From an uncultured Erysipelotrichaceae bacterium (GTDB lineage Bacteria > Bacillota_I > Bacilli_A > RF39 > UBA660), in the NCBI GenBank assembly GCA_902797995.1, contig CADBUX010000001.1, forward strand, positions 687 to 64,686: a stretch of DNA of 64,000 nucleotides, in the 5' to 3' direction. The position numbers and the translations under genes are program-made. This document shows, piece by piece, positions 12,787 through 48,369 of this stretch. A model generated the notes under the pieces. It saw only the letters and a program-made list of their open reading frames with translations, ran no database searches and was not told where the DNA came from. Position 1 is the stretch's first letter. Every line of letters begins with the position of its first letter.

Positions 12787-12822
12787 AAAGTAGTAAAAAA
12801 GCATATTTATTTGGAGGTTAGT

Positions 12823-13302
12823 TTGAAAAAGAGTTCTATTATTGTTATTGTTTTACTAATTATAGTTATTATAATTGTATTGCTGTTACTAAAATTAAAA
12901 CATAATAGTAAAGCAGTCAATATTTCTAATATTGAAAATTTAGATTTTTATTATACACAAGGGTATATGGCTAATTCAGATGTTAGATATGAAATTAAGT
13001 GTAAAGAGGAGTGCGTTTTAATTTATAAACCTCTTGGTTTTTCAGATAAAGAATCTAAAAAATATAAAATTAGTTCTGATGTAATTTTAGAAGTCGAAAA
13101 TTTACTTAATAAATATAGGATTTATGAATGGAATGGTTTTCATGAAAGTGATAAAAATGTCTTGGATGGAGATTCTTTTGGCTTTTTTGTTACTATGAAT
13201 GATGGTGATAAGATTCAGGCTTCTGGTTATATGAGCTGGCCTAAGAATTATGGGAATGTAAAAAGGGGACTTGAATCTATATTTGAAAAAGTAATAAAAT
13301 AA
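12823..13302 (+). CDS. signal-anchored protein of unknown function
   Basis: GGAGG at 12813-12817, then TTG 12823. MKKSSIIVIVLLIIVIIIVLLLL anchor plus a ~130-aa soluble domain. No family recognised. Confidence 0.55.
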   Translation: MKKSSIIVIVLLIIVIIIVLLLLKLKHNSKAVNISNIENLDFYYTQGYMANSDVRYEIKCKEECVLIYKPLGFSDKESKKYKISSDVILEVENLLNKYRIYEWNGFHESDKNVLDGDSFGFFVTMNDGDKIQASGYMSWPKNYGNVKRGLESIFEKVIK

Positions 13303-13322
13303 TAGTGTGTGGAGGTTTTTAT

Positions 13323-13679
13323 ATGAAAGATTTATCTATAGTTGATAATTATATGGACGAAAGGGAATTTAGAAATTATGTTCAAGTTTTGCTAATAGAC
13401 AGAGGATATAAGTCTGTTACTATCGATGATGTGAGATTATCAGATGATACAAAGTTAAATGATAATGATATGCTTGCCCAAAAAGATGATATCACTTATA
13501 CTATTCAAACTTTTTTAAATGTTCCTGTTGGTAAAAATGAAATTGATGAAACTTATGATGATATGGATGCAGAAAGTGTTAGTGCGGGTATAATTATTAC
13601 TAATACTAAAGTTTATGATGAAATTAAGGACTATGCTAAAACTAAATCCATAGAAATTTGGGATAGAGATAATTTATAA
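13323..13679 (+). CDS. small standalone restriction-endonuclease-fold (Mrr_cat-like) protein, possibly with a degenerate active site
   Basis: EFRNYVQVLLIDRGYKSV..DNDMLA..YTIQTF..VSAGIIITNTKVYDEIKDYAKTKSIEIWDRDNL follows the Mrr catalytic-domain layout. The usual QxK reads QTF. Confidence 0.45.
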   Translation: MKDLSIVDNYMDEREFRNYVQVLLIDRGYKSVTIDDVRLSDDTKLNDNDMLAQKDDITYTIQTFLNVPVGKNEIDETYDDMDAESVSAGIIITNTKVYDEIKDYAKTKSIEIWDRDNL

Positions 13680-13759
13680 AATTTAGTAAAATGCATTTCA
13701 TAAATGAAATATATGTTGATAAAATTGTTTTATTCTAAATGGATATTTCTTCATAGTGG

Positions 13760-13768
13760 TGTTATAAT
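13760..13768 (+). promoter_or_regulatory. extended -10 promoter TGtTATAAT in front of a 16-codon mini-ORF and terminator
   Basis: GGTGTTATAAT read at 13758-13768. Confidence 0.35.
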
Positions 13769-13870: not shown

Positions 13871-14464
13871 ATGCTTGAATTAAAAAGAGGTTATGATTCT
13901 AATTGTAAAGAAAAATTTATAATTAAGACAGATGAAGGGCCATTTAAGATTTATTATGGTTCTGATTTATGTTTATATTGGTCTTGTAGTGCATCTGATG
14001 ATATGAAAGATTTTTATCAATTTACGATTACTAATGAAAACAGACATGTTTATAATATGTTTGCAGCACTTTATGATTCTGTTGTCAGCAAAATGCCTTT
14101 TAAACATTTCTGTACTGATGAACCACAAAAGTATTATTCTTACAATGATAACAATTTAGTTAAAGATAATGCTATAGAATGGCATAGTGATGATTTTTCA
14201 TACGATGCTGCAAGTGTTTTAAAAATAGAAAAGAATAGCGAAACTGATAATTTTATAGTATCTTTTTATAAAAGTAAGCTTTCTTTTGATGATATTGGAG
14301 CTTTTTCTACTAATTCAGTTAAAATTGGTACTGGTGAATCTAGATATTCTCCATATAACGCTACATTTATAGATATGTATAAAAAGATGTGCAATTATTG
14401 TGAACAACGTGGTCATACATTTAGTAATAGTAAATTTGGGAGAAGAAGAGTTAGAACTAGATAA
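13871..14464 (+). CDS. unknown-family protein, paralog 1 of 4
   Basis: AGGTGATTTTATG start context. Shares the motifs LYD..(x)MPFK, IEWHSDD, F.KSK, RYSPYN.TF..MY.K and a basic C-terminus with the next three genes. Confidence 0.75.
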   Translation: MLELKRGYDSNCKEKFIIKTDEGPFKIYYGSDLCLYWSCSASDDMKDFYQFTITNENRHVYNMFAALYDSVVSKMPFKHFCTDEPQKYYSYNDNNLVKDNAIEWHSDDFSYDAASVLKIEKNSETDNFIVSFYKSKLSFDDIGAFSTNSVKIGTGESRYSPYNATFIDMYKKMCNYCEQRGHTFSNSKFGRRRVRTR

Positions 14465-14478
14465 GTTCTAACTTTTTT
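14450..14478 (+). terminator. intrinsic terminator after paralog 1
   Basis: GTTAGAACT-AGATA-AGTTCTAAC stem-loop plus T6. The left arm is coding. Confidence 0.7.
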
Positions 14479-14506
14479 GATTGACCCATAATTTATATGT
14501 TATTAT
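14477..14506 (+). promoter_or_regulatory. promoter for paralogs 2-3 (TTGATT, 18-nt spacer, TGtTATTAT)
   Basis: Hexamers read at 14477-14482 and 14501-14506, with TG at 14498-14499. Confidence 0.45.
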
Positions 14507-14524
14507 ATTTAAGTAGGTGATTTT

Positions 14525-15115
14525 ATGGTTGATATAAAAAGGTATAATAGTTCAGTTTGTGAAGTGTTTTCTATAACGAATAACTCTGGTAACCTAAAGC
14601 TTTTTACTTTTTATGATAATGACTTGCGTTTTACATGTGATGACCTTGAAAACTTTACTTATAGCATTGAAATATGTCCAGATGATTCATATTTTTATAC
14701 ACTCGTTGATGAAGTATATGATGCTGTTTCTAATCGTCAACCATTTAAATATCTTAAGTTTGATTTTGATGATAATGATTTAGTATTTTCTGAAACAGTT
14801 AGCAATTCTAAAAGCTTATTTAAAAATGGCGTAATAGAATGGCATAGTGATGATTCTGTTTATAATGTTGGTAGTGTTCTTTACATATTGAAAGAAGATA
14901 ATAGATATACTATGACTTTTCAAAAGAGCAAAGCACATTTAAATAGAGTTGACCCTTTTGCAGATTTTACTGTCACTATTGGAAATAATAGTAGATATAG
15001 TCCTTATAATATAACGTTTATGAACATGTTTAATAAACTTAGGGATTATTATGTTAATCAAATAAATATAAGTAATCATGTATCGAGAGAAATAGTTAAT
15101 GTTCGAAAAAAATAA
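14525..15115 (+). CDS. unknown-family protein, paralog 2 of 4
   Basis: Same AGGTGATTTTATG start context. Motifs VYDAVSNRQPFK, IEWHSDD, FQKSK, RYSPYNITFMNMFNKL. Confidence 0.75.
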   Translation: MVDIKRYNSSVCEVFSITNNSGNLKLFTFYDNDLRFTCDDLENFTYSIEICPDDSYFYTLVDEVYDAVSNRQPFKYLKFDFDDNDLVFSETVSNSKSLFKNGVIEWHSDDSVYNVGSVLYILKEDNRYTMTFQKSKAHLNRVDPFADFTVTIGNNSRYSPYNITFMNMFNKLRDYYVNQINISNHVSREIVNVRKK

Positions 15116-15132
15116 TAATAGTGAGGTGTTTT

Positions 15133-15711
15133 ATGGTTCAAGTAATTAAAAAAAATTTAGATAATACAGATGCTATTCTTATAAATGCAGATGAAGGAAT
15201 GTTTTATATTACTTTTGCAGGTAATCTGGATCTTTACATTGGTTATTACGGGGAAGATATAAGAAAAACTGATAAACATAGTTTTATTGTTTCGAAAGAT
15301 AATTATTTTTTGTATAGGTGTTTTGATGAGTTATATGATGCTATTATTTGTGAAATGCCTTTTAAAAATGGATTTGTATCTTTGGATAAGTACCCTCTTA
15401 AACATCTTTATTATCCGCTTATAAATAATAAAGTGATAGAATGGCACAGTGATGATGGTCTATATGATAAAGCTGCAATTCTTTTTATAGAAAAGATCGA
15501 TGGATCATATAGAATTACTGTTAAGGAAGGATTAGTAAGTGATATCAACATTCAGACTTCTTCTGTGAGATTTAGAAATCATGGTAGTATATACGATCCA
15601 TATAATTGTGCATTTATGGGCTTGTATAACCAACTTTGTACTCACAATTTTGACTATGAACAAATTACGATGGATGAGTATATAGATAGGATAAAAATTA
15701 AGAAAAGATAA
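15133..15711 (+). CDS. unknown-family protein, paralog 3 of 4
   Basis: GAGGTG RBS, then ATG 15133. Motifs LYDAIICEMPFK, IEWHSDD, IYDPYNCAFMGLYNQL. Confidence 0.75.
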   Translation: MVQVIKKNLDNTDAILINADEGMFYITFAGNLDLYIGYYGEDIRKTDKHSFIVSKDNYFLYRCFDELYDAIICEMPFKNGFVSLDKYPLKHLYYPLINNKVIEWHSDDGLYDKAAILFIEKIDGSYRITVKEGLVSDINIQTSSVRFRNHGSIYDPYNCAFMGLYNQLCTHNFDYEQITMDEYIDRIKIKKR

Positions 15712-15741
15712 AGACATTTCTTGTTTACTTTATCTTTTTTT
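15703..15741 (+). terminator. intrinsic terminator after paralog 3
   Basis: AAAAGATAAAG ... CTTTATCTTTT stem with T run. The left arm encodes the KKR-stop C-terminus. Confidence 0.6.
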
Positions 15742-15744
15742 GTG

Positions 15745-15753
15745 TGATATAAT
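15745..15753 (+). promoter_or_regulatory. extended -10 promoter TGaTATAAT for paralog 4
   Basis: TTTTTGTGTGATATAATT is identical to 11803-11820. Confidence 0.5.
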
Positions 15754-15775
15754 TTTATTGTAGGAGGATTTAGTT

Positions 15776-16363
15776 ATGACAAAAGTAACAAAAGAGAATA
15801 ATTGGGGAGAAAATGACGTTATCAACGTTCAAACAAATGAGGGAAACTTTTATATTTCATTTGAAAAAGACTTAAATTTATATTTTAGTTATTCAGGAAA
15901 CAATATTGAAGATGAAGATGAGTATAGTTTTACTATTGATAAAGAAAATGCTTTTTTATATGAATGTTTTGATGAATTATATGATTCCATAGAGAGTGAA
16001 ATGCCTTTTAAATATAGTGAAAATTTACCTAATACAGATTGCGTGTATCCACTTTCTAAAGTTTGTGTAGAACTTGATCATGGAGATGGCATAATAGATT
16101 GGCATAGTGAAGATGAATCAAATTATGATTTGGCTAGTGTTTTAGAAATAATGCCTTATATTGATTCTTATATTGTTACGTTTAAGAAAAGTAAATCTAA
16201 GATGGGGCATTCGGCTTACTCTGTTTGTATAAAGAATGGTGGTAGTGGATATGACCCATACAATGCTTCTTTTATGATAATGTATAATAAACTTCGCGGA
16301 CATAATTTTGAATTAGATAATAACTCTTTAGATAAAGGTTATATTAGAACTCTTAAAAGATAA
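15776..16363 (+). CDS. unknown-family protein, paralog 4 of 4
   Basis: AGGAGG RBS. Motifs LYDSIESEMPFK, IDWHSED, FKKSKSK, GYDPYNASFMIMYNKL. Confidence 0.75.
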   Translation: MTKVTKENNWGENDVINVQTNEGNFYISFEKDLNLYFSYSGNNIEDEDEYSFTIDKENAFLYECFDELYDSIESEMPFKYSENLPNTDCVYPLSKVCVELDHGDGIIDWHSEDESNYDLASVLEIMPYIDSYIVTFKKSKSKMGHSAYSVCIKNGGSGYDPYNASFMIMYNKLRGHNFELDNNSLDKGYIRTLKR

Positions 16364-16426: not shown

Positions 16427-17519
16427 ATGGAACTTTCTCTAATTAAAAAAAAATTACTAGATTCTAATTTAAAAATCAAAGATTTATGGAGGTTACTTTG
16501 AAGTAGATTCTAAGCTTGAAGCGATTCGTTTATTAGAAGAAAAAAGTAATAATCCATCTTTTTGGGATGATAGTGAAAAGGCTCAAGAAGTATTAAAAAA
16601 GATTAATTATCTGAAGGAGATTACTTCAAATATAATTTCTGTTAAGGATATAGTAACTTCTGATTTAGAAATTGTATCTTTACTTGAAGATGAGTATGAT
16701 GAAGATTTATTTTCTTCAATATCTACTGATATTTTAAGTCTTGAAGAAAAAGTATCTTCTTTAGAACTTGAAGTATTACTTTCTGGTGAGTATGATCATA
16801 ATAATTGCATGCTTGAAATACATTCTGGTGCAGGCGGAACTGAAGCCCAAGATTGGGCTAATATGCTATATAGAATGTATGAAAGATGGTGTTTAAGTAA
16901 AGGATATAATGTAGAGGTTCTTGACATACTTGATGGGGAAGAAGCAGGTATAAAAAGGGTTACTTTGTTTGTAAAAGGAATTAATGCATATGGATATTTA
17001 AAATGTGAAAAAGGTATTCATCGTTTAGTAAGACTATCTCCTTTTGATAGTAATAATAAAAGACATACATCTTTTGCTTCTGTTGATGTTATACCTGAAA
17101 TTGATGATAGTGTTGATATTGAGATAAAAGATGAAGATTTAAAAATTGATGTATACCGTAGTAGTGGAGCAGGTGGACAAAGTGTTAATACTACGGATAG
17201 TGCTGTTAGAATTACCCATTTGCCTACTAAAATAGTGGTCACTTGCCAAAATGAGAGAAGTCAGTTAAAAAATAAAGAAAAGGCTCTTTCTATTTTAAAA
17301 GGAAAACTTAAACTTCTTGAGGAAGAAAGGAAAGAGGCAGAGCTTGCAACACTTAAAGGTAATGCTAAGAAAATAGACTTTGGGTCTCAGATTAGAAGTT
17401 ATGTTATGCATCCATATTCTATGGTGAAAGATCATCGTACCGGAGTAGAAACTAGTAATGTTTCTAAGGTTTTAGATGGCGATTTGGATATGTTTATAGA
17501 TGGATATTTAAGGAGTTGA
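16427..17519 (+). CDS. prfB: peptide chain release factor 2, expressed through a programmed +1 frameshift at 16496-16501
   Basis: Frame 0 encodes MELSLIKKKLLDSNLKIKDLWRLL and ends at CTT TGA. The +1 frame continues EVDSKLEAIRLLEE... into the tracked ORF 16809-17519, which has SPF and GGQ motifs. Confidence 0.9.
16488..16501 (+). other. RF2 autoregulatory +1 frameshift site: internal SD GGAGG, 3-nt spacer, CTT TGA
   Basis: GGAGGTTACTTTGA read directly. The SD-to-slippery-codon spacing equals that of the E. coli prfB site. Confidence 0.85.
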
Positions 17520-30523: not shown

Positions 30524-33500
30524 GTGGCATACAAATTAATAAATTGTGGTGACCATCGCAAACGTAGAAGTTTTTCCAAAATCAAGAATACTTATGAATT
30601 AACTGATTTATTGGAAATTCAAAAGAAATCATATAATTGGTTTGTGGAAAAAGGTATTGAGGAAGTCTTTAGTGATTTGTTCCCCGTAGAAAATTTTGCA
30701 GGAACACTTTCGCTAGAGTTTGGTGATTATCATTTTGATGAACCAAGATATTCCGTAAAAGAGTGTAAAGAAAGGTATGCTACTTTTGCTGCGCCTTTAA
30801 AAGTTGATGTTAGGCTTTTTAACAATGAAACTGGTGAAGTAAAAGAGCAAGAAATATTCTTAGGAGATATGCCTCTTATGACTGACAGTGGAACTTTTGT
30901 CATAAATGGTGCAGAACGTGTTATTGTATCTCAACTTGTTAGATCTCCAAGTGTATATTTTAATAAGGAAATCGATAAGAATGGTAGGCTCTTAATTACA
31001 TCACAAATAATTCCTACTCGTGGTACTTGGCTTGAATTTGAAGCAGATGCTAGGGATATTTTATATGTAAGAATAGATCGTACTAGAAAAGTACCTTTAA
31101 CTACTATGCTTCGTGCATTTGGTTTATCTAGTGATGATGAGATAATCGATTTGTTTGGTAAGAGTGATTTTATTGAAAATACTATTGCTAAAGATTCTAC
31201 TAGAAATACAGATGAAGCTTTAATTGAAATATATGAAAAGTTAAGGCCAGGAGAACCAGCAACTTTAGATAGTTCTAAAAACCAAATTATTACTAGATTC
31301 TTTGATGAATTTAGATATGATTTAGCTAAGGTTGGTAGATATAAGTTTAATCTTAAACTTAATGTTATGGATAGACTTCTTGGACAAACACTTGCTGAGG
31401 ATATTAAGGTTGATAAGAACATAGTTTGTGCTAAAGGTACTGTTTTAACTAAAGATGTTTTGGAAGAACTTAAACCTGTATTTGAAGCTGGTTATGGTGT
31501 TAAGGAAGTTAAGATTAACGAAGAACTTGATACGTATAATAAAGTTCAAATAGTTAAGATTTATAAACCTGGTACTAAAGAAAAAATGGTTGTTATTGGT
31601 AATGATCAAACGATAGATAGTAAAAGACTTACTATATCTGATTTTTATGCATCTTGTTCATATTATTTAAATCTTTTACAAGGTGTTGGAAACTTTGATG
31701 AAATAGACCACTTAGGAAACAGAAGAATTCGTCAAGTAGGAGAACTTTTACAAAATCAATTTAGAGTTGGTGTTACTCGTATGGAAAGAGTTATTCGTGA
31801 AAGAATGACTACTCAAGATATAAATGAAGTAACTCCTAAAACACTTATTAATATAAGACCAGTTACTGCGATATTAAAAGAATTCTTTGGTAGTTCACAA
31901 CTATCACAATTTATGGATCAAAATAATCCAATTGCAGAACTTACACATAAAAGACGTCTTAGTGCATTAGGACCAGGTGGTCTTTCTCGTGATAGAGCAG
32001 GAATGGATGTACGTGACGTTAATGAATCACACTATGGTAGAATTTGTCCGATTGAATCTCCAGAAGGGCCAAACATTGGACTTATTACTACACTTGCTAG
32101 TTATGCTAAAATTGATGAATATGGATTTATTCAAACTCCATATCGTAAAGTTGTAGATTCAGTTATTCAAGATGATGTTCATTATTTAACTGCTAGCGAA
32201 GAAAACGATGTTATAATTTCACAATCTACAGTTACTACAGATGATAATAATAAAATAATAGATGAAAAAGTTGCAGCTCGTTATCGTGGTGAAAACTTAA
32301 TGGTTACTCCTGATAAGGTTGACTATATTGATGTTTCTCCACAACAAGTTGTATCTATTACAACAAGTTGTATTCCGTTCTTGGAACACGATGATGCAAC
32401 TCGTGCTTTAATGGGATCTAATATGCAACGTCAAGCAGTACCGCTTCTTACAACTGAAGCACCATTTGTAGGTACTGGTGTTGAACATATAGCTGCTCGT
32501 GACAGTGGTTCTACTATTGTAGCTAAGGCTGATGGTGTTGTAAGTTATGTTGATGGTAGAAAGGTAGTTGTTAAGAATAAAGGCGGAGAAGATACATATT
32601 ATTTATCTGACTTTGAAGCTTCTAACCAAGATACTTGTTTCCATCATAGACCTATAGTTAAAGTAGGAGATAAAGTTAAACGTGGTAAGACTATTCTTGC
32701 TGATGGACCTTCTACTGATATGGGAGAACTTGCTCTTGGTAAGAATATGGTTGTAGCATTCATGTTATTTAATGGATATAACTACGAAGACGCTGTAATA
32801 CTTAATGAAAGATTAGTTAAAGATGATGCATATACTACTATTCATATAGTAGATTATGAAATGCCTTGTCGTGAAACAAAACTTGGACCTGAAGAGATTA
32901 CTCGTGATATTCCTAATGTTAGTGAAGAATCACGTAAAAACTTAGATGCTGAAGGTATTATTAGAATTGGTACTGAAGTAAAAGAAGGGGATATTCTTGT
33001 TGGTAAAGTTACTCCAAAAGGAATGGCAGAACTTACTAGTGAAGAAAAATTACTTCATGCAATCTTTGGTGAAAAGACTCGTGAAGTTCGTGATACATCA
33101 CTTAGAGTTCCACATGGTGGAGATGGTATAGTTCACGATGTTAAAATATTTACTAAAAAGAATAGTGATGAACTTCCTAGTGGAGTATCAAAACTAATTC
33201 GTGTATATATAGTACAAAAGAGAAAAATACAAGTTGGGGATAAGATGTCAGGTCGTCATGGTAATAAAGGTGTTATTTCACTTATTTTACCTGAAGAAGA
33301 TATGCCATTTATGCCTGATGGTAGACCAGTTGATATCATGCTTAACCCACTTGGAGTTCCATCTCGTATGAACATTGGTCAAGTACTAGAACTTCATTTA
33401 GGTATGGCTGCTAAGAAACTTGGTGTTCACGTAGCAACTCCAGTATTTGATGGTGCTACTGAAGAAGATATAGCTGCTATGATGAAAGAAGCAGGTATGG

Positions 33501-34114
33501 CTGAGGATGGTAAGACTATTCTATATGATGGTCGTACAGGTCGTCCATTTGATAATAGGGTATCAGTTGGAGTTATGTACATGATTAAACTTCACCACAT
33601 GGTTGAAGATAAGATGCATGCACGTGCTACCGGACCTTATTCACTTGTCACTCAACAACCACTTGGAGGTAAAGCTCAATTTGGTGGACAAAGATTTGGA
33701 GAAATGGAAGTTTGGGCTCTTTATGCTTATGGTGCTGCTCATACACTTCAAGAAATTTTAACTGTTAAATCAGATGATGTTATTGGACGTGTTAAGGTTT
33801 ATGAAGCGCTTGTTAAAGGTCAAAAAGTAGATCAAGCTGGTGTTCCTGAATCATTTAGAGTATTAATTAAGGAATTCCAAGCTTTAGGACTTGATATTCA
33901 AATAATTAATGATAAGAATGAAGTTCTAGACTTAAAGGAAATAGAAAGAGAAGAAATTAGTGAAAATACTAGTTTTGCAATAGATGATATTGAATTTAAA
34001 AAATTATCAGATGAAGCTTCTACTGAAGAGGAACCTTTGGAGGAACATGAGGTAGATGAAGATGATGAACTTGATTTTTCGGATGAAGCTTTAGAAAGTG
34101 AGGTGGAATACTAA
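30524..34114 (+). CDS. rpoB: DNA-directed RNA polymerase subunit beta
   Basis: 1196 aa, GTG start, full set of conserved beta blocks. Confidence 0.98.
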
Positions 34115-37100
34115 TGTTGGAAGTAAATAAAGTTGAAGCTTTAAAAATTGGTATTGCATCTTCTGATAAGATACGTGAATGGTCTTATGGTGAAGTTAAA
34201 AAACCTGAAACTATTAACTATCGTACTTTAAAACCTGAAAGAGATGGACTATTCTGTGAAAAAATCTTTGGGCCTACTAAAGACTTTGAATGTTCATGTG
34301 GTAAATATAAAAGAGTGAAGTATAAAAATATAATCTGTGATAGATGTGGGGTTGAAGTAACTCGTTCAAAAGTTAGACGTGAAAGAATGGGACATATTGA
34401 GCTTGCTTCTCCTGTATCACACATTTGGTATTTTAAAGGAATTCCATCTCGTATGGGTACTGTACTTGATATGAGTCAACGTGACTTGGAAGAAGTTCTA
34501 TATTTTGTATCATATGTTGTTATTGATAAAGGTATTGCACCACTTGAAAACAAGCAAACATTATCTGAAAAAGAATATCGTGCATATTATGAAAAATATG
34601 GTGATGGATTCAGAGTAGGAATGGGTGCTGAAGCTGTTAAAGAACTTCTTAAACAAGTTGATCTTGAAAAGGAAATTGCTGATATACGTAAAAAGTTAGA
34701 AAATGCACAAGGTCAAAAGAGAACTTCTCTTTTGAAAAGACTTGATATACTTGATGCATTCTATAAATCTGGTAATAAGCCTGAATGGATGATTATGGAT
34801 GCTATTCCAGTTATTCCACCAGAACTTAGGCCAATGATTCAACTTGATGGTGGTAGATTTGCTACTTCTGATTTAAACGATTTATACCGTCGTGTTATTA
34901 ATCGTAATAATCGTTTGAAGAAACTAATTGATTTAGGAGCTCCATCTATCATTATTCAAAATGAAAAGAGAATGCTTCAAGAAGCAGTTGACGCTTTATT
35001 TGACAATGGACGCCGTGGTAAGAGCGTTACTGGTGCTGGAAATCGTCCTCTTAAATCACTTTCTAGTATGTTAAAAGGTAAACAAGGACGTTTTAGACAA
35101 AACCTTCTTGGTAAACGTGTTGATTACTCAGGACGTAGTGTTATTATTGTAGGACCTAGTCTTAAAATGTATCAATGTGGTCTTCCAAAAGGAATGGCAC
35201 TTGAATTATTTAAACCACATGTTATACATGGACTTGTTGAAAAAGGAATTGCTCATAATATTAAGGCTGCTAAGAAACTTATCGATAATCAAGATGAAAG
35301 AGTATGGGATATAGTTGAAGAAGTTATTAAAGAACATCCTGTTATGCTTAACCGTGCTCCAACTCTTCATAGACTTGGTATTCAAGCATTTGAACCAAAA
35401 TTAATTGGTGGTAAAGCTATTCGTCTTCACCCTCTTGTATGTCCTGCATTTAATGCAGACTTTGATGGTGACCAAATGGCTGTACACGTACCACTTTCTG
35501 AAGAAGCTCAAGCTGAAGCTAGACTTTTAATGCTTGGTGCTAATAACATTCTTCATCCAAAAAGTGGGGAACCGGTTGTTACTCCTGCTCAAGATATGGT
35601 TCTTGGTAATTATTATCTTACAATGGAAGAACAAGACGAAGATGAAGGACGTGTATTTAGAAACTCTAATGAAGCTTTAATGGAATATGAACGTGGAGAT
35701 CTTAAACTTCATACTAGAATAGCTTTAAGAGTTGATTCATTTAAACATAAATTGTTCTCTGAAGAACATAAAAATGATTATTTAGTTACTACTGTTGGTA
35801 AATTAATATTTAATGAAATACTTCCTGATACATTCCCTTATATTAATGAACCTACTAAAGAAAATATTGAAAAGATTACTCCAAGTAAATATTTCTTAAA
35901 ACCTGGTACTAATATAAAGGAAGCAATTAAGGAAATGCCAATTGTGGAACCATTCCCTGTTAAGACTTTAAAGCAAATAATTGCTCAAATATTTAAGCTT
36001 TATAAGACTACTGAAACATCAATTATGCTTGATAGGCTTAAAGATTTAGGATTTAAATATTCTACAATAAGTGGTACTACAGTATCAGCTCATGACGTTG
36101 CTACAAGTAGTAAAAAAACTCAAATAATTGCTGAAAGTAATAAGATGGTGGATAAGATCAATAAGCAATATGCACGTGGTCTTATTACTGAAGAAGAAAG
36201 ATATAATAGTGTTATCAATGTTTGGTATAAAGCTAAAGATGATGTTCAAGCTGAACTTCAAGAAATTGCAGATAATGCAACTACTAATCCAATCTTTATG
36301 ATGATGAAGTCTGGTGCTCGTGGTAAGATTTCACAATTTGTACAGTTATCTGGTATGCGTGGTCTTATGAGTAAACCAGGTGGACGTGTTATTGAAATTC
36401 CAGTTATTTCTTCATTTAAAGAAGGATTGTCTGTATCTGAATTCTTCTTATCTACGCATAGTGCTCGTAAAGGTAGTGCCGATACTGCTCTTAATACAGC
36501 ATCTTCTGGATACTTAACTCGTAGACTTGTAGATGTTTCTCAAGATGTTATTGTTAAAGAAGCTGATTGTGGTACAGACTTTGGAGTTACTGTGGAAGCA
36601 TTTATTAACGAAAAAGACGGAACTGTTATCGAAAACTTATATGATCGTATCGTTGGCCGTTATGCAAGTAAAAAGGTAATTAATCCGAATACTCGCGAAG
36701 TAATCGTTGAAAAAGATGAATTTATCGGAGAAAAAGAAGCTGAAAAAATAGTGGCTGCCGGAATAGAAAAAGTTGAAATTAGAAGCGTTCTTACATGTAA
36801 TACTCATAATGGTGTATGTCAAAAATGTTATGGTAAGAACCTTGCTACTGGTAACCTTGTTGAAGTTGGAGAAGCTATTGGTATTATGGCTGCTCAATCA
36901 ATTGGTGAACCTGGTACACAACTTACAATGCGTACATTCCATACTGGTGGTGTTGCTGGGGGAGAAGATATTACTCAAGGTCTTCCTCGTGTTGAAGAGT
37001 TATTTGAAGCTAGAACTCCAAAAGGTCAAGCTACAATTGCTACGATCGATGGAAAAGTTAAAGATATTAAAGAAGATCATGGTAAGTATAAAATTAAGAT

Positions 37101-37743
37101 TAAGAATAAACTTGAAGAAGTTGAACATGTTACTAACTATGGTGCTAAACTTAGAGTAGCTAAGGGCGATGAAGTTAAAGTTGGAGATAAACTTACTGAA
37201 GGTAATATTAGTCCAAAAGAACTTCTTGCAGTTACTGATCCTATTACAACTCAAACTTATATTTTAAAAGAAATTCAAAAGGCTTATAGAGCTCAAGGTG
37301 TTGATATATCTGATAAACATATTGAAGTTGTTGTAAGTAGAATGATTTCTAAGATTAGAATAAGAGAAGGTGGAGATACTGAATTATTAATAGGAAGTTT
37401 AGTTAATATTAAAGATTTCTCTGATATTAATAAAGAAGCAATTCTTAAGGGTAAAAGACCTGCTTCTGGTAAACCAATACTTCTTGGTATTACTAAAGCT
37501 TCACTTGAGACTGAATCATTCTTATCTGCTGCATCATTCCAAGAAACTACTAGAGTTCTTACTGATGCCTCAATTAAAGGTAAGATTGATACACTTCAAG
37601 GACTTAAGGAAAATGTTATTATTGGTAAACTTATTCCTGCGGGAACAGGTGCTAGACAATATAGAGATGTTTCTTATGAACTAAAAAGACAATTTATGTC
37701 TGATGAAGCTATGGATGCTTTAGAAGATGAATTAATGGAATAG
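34114..37743 (+). CDS. rpoC: DNA-directed RNA polymerase subunit beta'
   Basis: 1209 aa. Zn ribbon CSCGKYK..CDRCG, catalytic NADFDGDQM. Confidence 0.98.
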
Positions 37744-48248: not shown

Positions 48249-48282
48249 TTTGATGTTATGACTGCTGTGATGTGCGAGGTTG

Positions 48283-48322
48283 CCGATACACCAGGCGTAG
48301 TTGTTAGTGTTATCGGGTTTTT
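48283..48322 (+). ncRNA. S10-operon leader hairpin with U tract (candidate attenuator)
   Basis: CCGATACAC ... GTGTTATCGG stem followed by GTTTTT, inside a locally GC-rich ~120-nt leader. Confidence 0.45.
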
Positions 48323-48369
48323 GTACGGAGCAAGTCTATACTAGATATAGGCGAAGGGAGGATGGATTG

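Follow-up and report, generated by a model that had tools for sequence, protein, structure and literature searches.

We analyzed a 64,000-nt window (positions 687 to 64,686 of contig CADBUX010000001.1, assembly GCA_902797995.1) from an uncultured Erysipelotrichaceae bacterium, in which G+C content is ~27%, GC skew is positive throughout, and nearly all genes lie on the + strand. This strand carries a tandem array of four genes, namely p1 (13871–14464, 197 aa), p2 (14525–15115, 196 aa), p3 (15133–15711, 192 aa), and p4 (15776–16363, 195 aa), whose products end in the tails RRRVRTR, VNVRKK, IKIKKR, and IRTLKR, respectively. For p3, we took ATG 15133 as the start codon, with the ribosome-binding site GAGGTG 7 nt upstream; a mechanical list of open reading frames (ORFs) starts the gene at GTG 15121. 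Pairwise identity among the four proteins is 29%–44%, with 25 invariant columns in a MAFFT alignment of the four. Their similarity is nonetheless far beyond chance, based on tblastn between paralogs (E 1e-16 to 1e-36) and on matches to a family hidden Markov model (HMM; E 1e-41 to 1e-57). A hydrophobic N terminus or hydrophobic segment was found in none of the four, the maximum 19-residue Kyte-Doolittle mean is ≤1.0 (3.9 in the adjacent upstream membrane protein), and the proteins look soluble, with an acidic body of pI 4.3–5.2. A first-pass annotation, made from the letters alone, had described four consecutive same-strand genes for soluble paralogs of low identity here, and this was confirmed down to the coordinates.

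The family to which these proteins belong is undescribed and new to every library scanned. Scans of all four paralogs against Pfam, NCBIfam, PADLOC, and PHROGs returned noise only, and PDB sequences gave nothing below E 0.09 against family profiles A1 and A3. Similarly, member-by-member scans of 62 diverse relatives and of consensus sequences against Pfam and NCBIfam yielded only scattered weak matches (DUF6392, MoaF_N, I-set, DUF4847, and MGMT_N), all in the beta-meander around the motif WHSDD. An indexed search recovered 73 relatives, none named and none with a Pfam domain, and a second one with a broader profile recovered 743 proteins, the few source names among them being "hypothetical protein." An exhaustive profile search of 1.84 billion representatives extended the family to 860 clusters at E ≤ 1e-3 (221 at E ≤ 1e-30), counted at 50% identity; the best 150 of the 860 are single-domain proteins of 165–248 aa. 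Hosts are gut and rumen Firmicutes. All four window paralogs match family profile A3 over their full length (E 2e-50 for p1, 2.5e-41 for p2, 2.4e-57 for p3, and 5.7e-48 for p4) and are thus members. With ~860 clusters at 50% identity, yet absent from Pfam and NCBIfam, the family is a candidate for a new domain entry, and its single-copy homologs in human-gut metagenome contigs may lead to more accessible organisms.

AlphaFold2 models were confident both for p1 (57 sequences; pLDDT 87.8, pTM 0.82) and for the single-copy homolog P0295 (74 sequences; pLDDT 92.5, pTM 0.88). In both, the predicted chain runs from an N-terminal five-strand meander through a long helix into a second, roughly four-stranded meander and then a C-terminal helix; in the P0295 model, the basic tail adds a further helix. 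Foldseek found no match to either model at E ≤ 1e-3 in PDB or BFVD, the best TM-score being ≤0.36. Matches to lipocalin, Bet v 1, TCTP, eIF4E, RnlA, and KA1 structures were regarded as noise (TM-score ≤0.36, E ≥ 0.09), and eIF4E-like and Whirly/PUR-like readings were dropped on the same low TM-scores and E ≥ 0.09. Provisionally, then, the modeled fold appears to be new as compared with PDB and BFVD, and confident models without a PDB counterpart make the family a structural-genomics target. The first-pass annotation had not recognized the family, and no library scanned, including PDB and BFVD by Foldseek, gave it a name.

The array is found directly upstream of prfB, its constant downstream border, in four related lineages: L001 (a goat-omasum "Bacilli bacterium" metagenome-assembled genome [MAG]), L006, L019/L020 (the closest relative), and L021–L023, where it comprises three genes and p2 is missing. 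By tblastn and a neighbor-joining tree, the genes fall into four clean ortholog groups, related 1:1 and in the same order. The tree has the form ((p1,p2),(p3,p4)), and the four groups are monophyletic with respect to single-copy members of the family. Orthologs are 54%–63% identical to those of L001 and 61%–89% to those of L019 (flanking genes, 62%–93%). Nei-Gojobori omega is 0.08–0.39 for the paralogs and 0.05–0.26 for flanking genes, values that are rough, with dS near saturation. As read from these alignments and the tree, the results show that tandem duplication took place in two rounds, both old, after which p1 to p4 were inherited vertically in fixed order under purifying selection, with a single loss of p2 (in L021–L023). 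No pair of paralogs shares more than 22 nt of identical DNA (at the IEWHSDD codons), so that signs of gene conversion are absent. The turnover in copy number and content between close relatives that a fast-evolving collection would entail was not observed: order is fixed in four lineages, with a single p2 loss and no conversion tracts.

The 22 bases common to p1 and p2, ATAGAATGGCATAGTGATGATT, lie at 14174–14195 and 14834–14855 of the window. Protein P0003, from an 802-bp ENA contig, switches exactly at IEWHSDD from p2 sequence (N-terminal half) to p1 sequence (C-terminal half). A k-mer assembly chimera is the most likely source, and a genuine unequal crossover is less probable.

A much more distant lineage (L014/L015, L018, and L024) has a single family member, located between a LysR gene and a radical-SAM gene. 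In L014 and L018, this copy sits two genes upstream of a prfB-yitT-yitT-ftsE-ftsX-pcsB block, the same as in the window, with flanking genes 33%–69% identical to those of the window (prfB 69%, pcsB 33%). Among the window paralogs, single copies of this type are closest to p3 (37.5%). As far as conserved gene order and sequence similarity allow the past to be reconstructed, these comparisons show that the ancestral state was a single copy 5′ of the prfB-yitT-ftsEX block. A conserved single-copy gene in related genomes, which the first-pass annotation had held to speak against its own proposal of an immunity-type collection, is thus largely what we found, the single copy lying 5′ of the prfB block in a distant lineage.

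To place these loci in a wider context, we surveyed 23 loci obtained by protein look-up and 54 from a metagenome scan for R[FI]RNSGSRY, grouped at 85% identity into 54 lineage groups. A genome-contig scan with a narrow peptide pattern yielded a single locus. Nearly all of these groups have one copy within the available DNA. Two copies were found in three lineages (L002, L012/L013, and L016/L017), and in two of the three, the copies are orthologous pairs. No neighbor recurs across the 54 groups except the prfB block in related lineages, and those cases do not count separately, since they represent one event by descent. Annotated neighbors are housekeeping genes (prfA/prmC and tyrS, LytR and rpsP, RNase HII, MGMT, M29 peptidase, uvrB, and others). 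In the Pfam-annotated loci, no toxin, LXG, WXG, Rhs, PAAR, secretion, or phage gene lies next to any copy, as the first-pass annotation had noted for the vicinity of the array, and no consistently large upstream gene was seen in the 54 groups. An ABC ATPase, seemingly recurrent in 12 of the 54 groups, proved to be a single-linkage artifact that mixed FtsE, ABC-F, and other ATPases, and an apparent link to translation (prfB, prfA, rpsP, tyrS, rplS, rplQ, gltX, smpB, and dtd as neighbors) was no more than expected in small Firmicute genomes. Relatives were found neither in IMG/VR with two narrow peptide patterns from A1 nor in PLSDB and INPHARED by tblastn with one member, P0295.

Two metagenomic contigs carry family genes broken by frameshifts (L052, 1726–2437; L077, 3407–4060), which reflect either sequencing or assembly errors or pseudogenes, the latter implying a dispensable gene. 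For L034 and L050, pseudogenes and a nonstandard genetic code were both rejected: the two genes are intact, and ORF calling had merely shortened them to a later Met.

Conserved position in the core chromosome, single-copy status, and stable, constrained orthologs argue that this is a gene of the chromosome, passed on vertically and conserved in its molecular function, which underwent a single multiplication in this clade. Polar motifs kept throughout the family, absence from the mobile-element collections searched, and the lack of a toxin partner argue for the same. Taken together, we interpret the array as one ancestral chromosomal gene that was expanded in tandem to four copies in this lineage and that encodes a stand-alone cytoplasmic binding protein with specialized copies, an interpretation to which we would give roughly an even chance. 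In outline, an ancestral single gene 5′ of the prfB-yitT-ftsEX block passed through two duplication rounds to give ((p1,p2),(p3,p4)).

What such a protein might bind is suggested by its conserved motifs. Near-invariant elements of the family are GNLDLYW (strand 4), F.ITKENY..Y.LF.ELY (spanning strand 5 and helix 1), L....I.W[H]SDD..Y..A....I., and a loop and helix with the pattern [SI][VI]R[FI]RNSGSRY.P[YF]N..FM.MYN.L. Conserved polar residues, in P0295 numbering, are D34, Y36, Y64, D123, N164, S167, Y169, and N173, and a basic C-terminal tail is family-wide (mean of 4.2 K/R in the last eight residues of 331 proteins). The motif skeleton of the first-pass annotation overlaps with these elements and held in large part: I[ED]WHS[DE]D, [SA][VI]L.I, Y[SD]PYN..F, and basic tails are present in all four paralogs, but F.KSK is absent from p3 (VKEGL), and a few positions of p1 differ from the first motif (VY..FA.LYD) and from the last (MYKKM). 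p3 is the only window paralog to keep all family-invariant residues, and its loop, RFRNHGSIYDPYN, retains most of the ancestral RFRNSGS loop. In p1, C stands in place of D34 and T in place of N164, with the signature loop KIGTGESRYSPYN; in p2, Y36 is replaced by R, with the loop TIGNNSRYSPYN; and in p4, D34 is replaced by N, with the loop CIKNGGSGYDPYN and the motif variant IDWHSED. Of the ancestral loop, p1 and p2 retain SRY only, and p4 retains neither RFRNSGS nor SRY. Each paralog's loop variant is conserved within its own ortholog group. This is the pattern expected if, judging from the residues retained, p3 keeps the ancestral role and p1, p2, and p4 are specialized derivatives.

Under the proposed expansion of a binding protein, GNLDLYW, I-x-W-H-S-D-D, and R-x-R-N-S-G-S-R-Y-x-P-Y/F-N would together make up a putative site. 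Its ligand or partner would be conserved and probably anionic, with nucleotides, nucleic acids, and acidic surfaces of proteins as candidates. The Trp/Asp motif and the Arg/Ser/Gly-rich loop would recognize this ligand or partner, aided by the basic C-terminal tail. p3 might retain the ancestral specificity, and p1, p2, and p4 might have specialized to other ligands or partners or act together with p3. The protein would accordingly be a stand-alone cytoplasmic binding module and not a toxin-linked immunity factor. Since the array pairs the ancestral signature of p3 with three fixed loop variants, it also constitutes a natural experiment, which would make the functional site easier to probe once a ligand or partner is known.

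The same residues could in principle serve catalysis. A small hydrolase or transferase using conserved Asp, Ser, Tyr, and Asn, with paralogs diverged in substrate, would account for the eight conserved polar positions, and the Arg/Ser/Gly-rich loop could bind phosphate. However, an invariant His, Cys, Lys, or Glu is lacking altogether, and many members have Y, R, V, or I instead of the His of WHSDD, which makes this His unlikely to be catalytic. Three paralogs stay constrained despite the loss of one or two near-invariant residues, and there is neither similarity to an enzyme family or fold nor a metabolic operon context. We consider an enzyme to be a rather poor prospect.

Several observations weigh against a conserved binding protein multiplied in place. 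Tandem multiplication of small acidic cytoplasmic proteins is typical of immunity genes. The family member is the fastest- or nearly the fastest-evolving gene in its neighborhood, with 76% identity between L014 and L018 (other genes 79%–99%) and 77% between L014 and L024 (other genes 84%–88%), and such evolution would also suit an accessory or conflict-related gene. In L016/L017, the two family genes lie on either side of four unannotated genes, in an island that has ORF6N and Panacea-type antitoxin domains. A few family members locally resemble DUF6392 (PF19929), as discussed below. Finally, most loci are short metagenomic contigs, in which farther copies or partners would be missed. Several of these points would be accommodated if p1 to p4 were orphan immunity proteins, each binding and neutralizing a different variant of an interbacterial toxin from competitors (such as a T7SS/LXG or bacteriocin nuclease) and with the proteobacterial pyocin/T6SS immunity family DUF6392 as distant kin; under this reading, the array would be a fixed set of four specificities, in keeping with the loop variant conserved in each paralog. 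We regard this as unlikely, though it deserves to be kept in view. Most lineages are single-copy, with a conserved position in a core chromosomal region; orthologs are stable and under purifying selection, with no sign of conversion; no toxin lies beside any Pfam-annotated copy and no recurrent or large upstream neighbor beside copies in the 54 groups; and polar motifs strongly conserved over ~860 clusters argue for one common target. Overall, the findings on the array do not fit a fast-turnover immunity or anti-defense collection. The first-pass proposal of an immunity, anti-defense, or rapidly evolving host-interaction collection accordingly finds little support, given single copies in nearly all of the 54 groups, 1:1 orthologs, omega of 0.08–0.39, and no matches in the phage, plasmid, and viral collections searched.

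On one weak point, however, the evidence does lean toward immunity. DUF6392 matched four of the 62 diverse members at E ≤ 1 and none of the four window paralogs. The best case, P0164, reached 25.9 bits (exactly the gathering score; E 8.7e-6) over profile positions 5–58 of 151, and P0070 aligned in the same register; the matches cover positions 5–58 or 14–93. Searched by tblastn against PLSDB (7.3 Gb of plasmids, E ≤ 10), the C-terminal half of P0164 gave five weak matches, three of them on coding sequences (CDSs) annotated as DUF6392. Comparison of the family profile with a 40-sequence DUF6392 profile by hhalign gave P 5e-4, but a probability of only 30.5% over 57 of ~200 columns, with the defining motifs of either family lacking a counterpart in the other, and the four window paralogs alone gave a probability of 0.07%. 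We take this similarity as a weak lead and not as evidence of membership.

DUF6392 itself is an immunity-type family that forms arrays and the partner of PAAR-Pyocin_S polymorphic toxins in Enterobacterales. On Chimaeribacter and Pantoea plasmids (L078 and L079), the DUF6392 gene overlaps the end of a PAAR-Pyocin_S toxin gene, stop codon included, by 4 nt, and up to three copies follow in a row, many sources naming them "pyocin immunity protein." For Klebsiella, a 1 + 3 arrangement of the same kind is reported in a preprint (10.1101/2025.04.03.646950). At these plasmid loci (L078, 2471–6456; L079, 4271–6456), the toxins are ~565 aa long, with a ~135-aa C-terminal region without a Pfam match; the toxin domain appears uncharacterized, and the three DUF6392 copies of the Chimaeribacter plasmid are 40%–44% identical. 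No tblastn match to this C-terminal region was found in the window or the family loci, and a PAAR-Pyocin_S toxin is adjacent to the family gene neither in the window nor in any of the family loci.

The family could also be a branch, Gram-positive and of new fold, of a wider superfamily of immunity-type inhibitors that includes DUF6392. p1 to p4 would then be a vertically inherited set of inhibitors with four specificities, "domesticated" immunity without a cognate toxin, held in the core genome against toxins of competing gut or rumen bacteria. This is a speculative and rather improbable reading, and a core-genome binding protein with specialized copies remains our preferred interpretation.

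Upstream of the array, the surroundings are variable. Relatives have a beta-elimination lyase at this border, whereas the window has a membrane protein and a small, stand-alone ORF with an Mrr_cat fold (13305–13679, 124 aa; PF04471, E 1.3e-10). Because relatives have the lyase at this position, the Mrr_cat ORF is best read as a recent replacement at the array's variable left border. By eye, the lysine of its catalytic Q-x-K motif is replaced (YTIQTF), and the product may be inactive. The first-pass annotation had placed the array between a putative nitroreductase gene and prfB and next to a nuclease-fold gene, correctly so for prfB and the nuclease fold. A nuclease-fold gene directly 5′ of the array, weakly matching the nuclease region of ZorD (PADLOC, E 9e-4), together with the ORF6N- and Panacea-bearing island of one lineage, might suggest an anti-phage defense system or a prophage-derived set of anti-defense genes. 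We consider this very improbable. The Mrr_cat ORF is missing from all related arrays; none of the four paralogs has a PADLOC or PHROGs match, and the searches of IMG/VR (two narrow peptide patterns) and of INPHARED and PLSDB (tblastn with P0295) gave no relatives; and the annotated flanks of the array, which is located in the core genome, show no integrase or phage genes.

In the island of L016 (1965–9068, the same in L017), which separates the two family members, a CHC2 zinc-finger-like gene (413 aa) is accompanied by a Panacea-domain gene (189 aa), and a gene of 246 aa by a weakly Panacea-like one of 179 aa; two further genes, of 206 and 210 aa, are paralogs of each other. PanA-type toxin-antitoxin pairs may be present, judging by these domain matches. 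The membrane protein upstream of the window's Mrr_cat ORF (12811–13302) is syntenic with membrane-anchored proteins of ~160 aa in L001 (7730–8203), L006 (6438–6911), and L021 (7737–8204), at 48%–51% identity; no family could be assigned to it.

Transcription of the array is plausibly modular (p1, p2-p3, and p4), as predicted from signals on the + strand. A promoter-like site, by consensus match only, precedes p1 (13740–13768; TGGATA-17-TATAAT, with an extended −10 TG), and others precede p2 (14481–14509; TTGACC-17-TATATT) and p4 (15724–15753; TTTACT-18-TATAAT, with an extended −10 TG). A terminator-like hairpin overlaps the p1 stop codon (14449–14479), with a 10-bp stem and a 5-nt loop (together 14449–14473) followed by a T5 run, and p2 and p3 are separated by 17 nt. 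After p3, a weak AT-rich inverted repeat (15704–15741) pairs 10 bp (15704–15713 with 15728–15737) around a 14-nt loop and is followed by a T-run; it fell below the terminator criteria of the scan and was read from the sequence. The transcription units proposed in the first-pass annotation stand in so far as the hairpin lies at the p1 stop, the region's three top-scoring promoter-like sites precede p1, p2, and p4, and the p2-p3 gap is short. They are weakened by the faint repeat after p3 and by a total of promoter-like sites not raised above that in shuffled sequence (36 vs 33.8). No riboswitch or leader was found in a search 5′ of the array.

Downstream, prfB (16427–17519, ATG 16427) contains a classical programmed +1 frameshift, with GGAGG at 16488–16492 and CTT TGA at 16496–16501, and continues in the +1 frame into the ORF listed from 16809. 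Two ORFs of 1081 and 1209 aa at 30869–37740 have the sizes of rpoB and rpoC, and on this reading, with identities taken from ORF sizes, the array lies ~15 kb 5′ of the rpoB/rpoC pair, where the chromosome is most conserved. An S10-Clostridia ribosomal-protein leader was detected at 48259–48354 (RF03136, 40.5 bits), and the genes 3′ of it look like the S10/spc/alpha ribosomal-protein operon run from ORF sizes alone. The array is on the same strand as an M29 peptidase gene, the rpoB/rpoC-sized pair, and the presumed ribosomal-protein operons, the last based on one Rfam leader match and ORF sizes. As deduced from these neighbors, the array is within the core region of the chromosome.

Like DUF6392 proteins, members of the present family are small and cytoplasmic and occur in tandem multi-copy sets, and the two show a weak local profile similarity of ~57 columns (Y..L.D.G.I.[WY] ... 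h.L.F), in a register that is the same in two members and in hhalign. However, DUF6392 proteins have 155 aa and come from proteobacteria, often from plasmids, their genes are translationally coupled to that of a toxin, and their hallmarks FPNELP.PL and MSR.WVH..IG.P are absent from the present family, as WHSDD, RNSGSRY, and GNLDLYW are from DUF6392.

The EsaG/DUF600 immunity arrays of Staphylococcus aureus and the SUKH/Imm arrays of polymorphic toxin systems are located beside their toxin or secretion locus, and their copy number differs from strain to strain. The present array resembles them in consisting of diverged, same-strand paralogs for soluble proteins of 150–200 aa in Firmicutes, but differs in having no toxin nearby, fixed 1:1 orthologs, and no Pfam match to such families. 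Tandem arrangement of genes for small, diverged proteins does not on its own point to an immunity or defense island. Ordinary, lineage-specific expansions of conserved hypothetical ("DUF") genes in tandem differ from the present case in that no domain library covers this family and nothing comparable to its predicted fold was detected in PDB. Nonetheless, the array shares with them one gene duplicated in place, copies kept under purifying selection, and signs of sub- or neofunctionalization.

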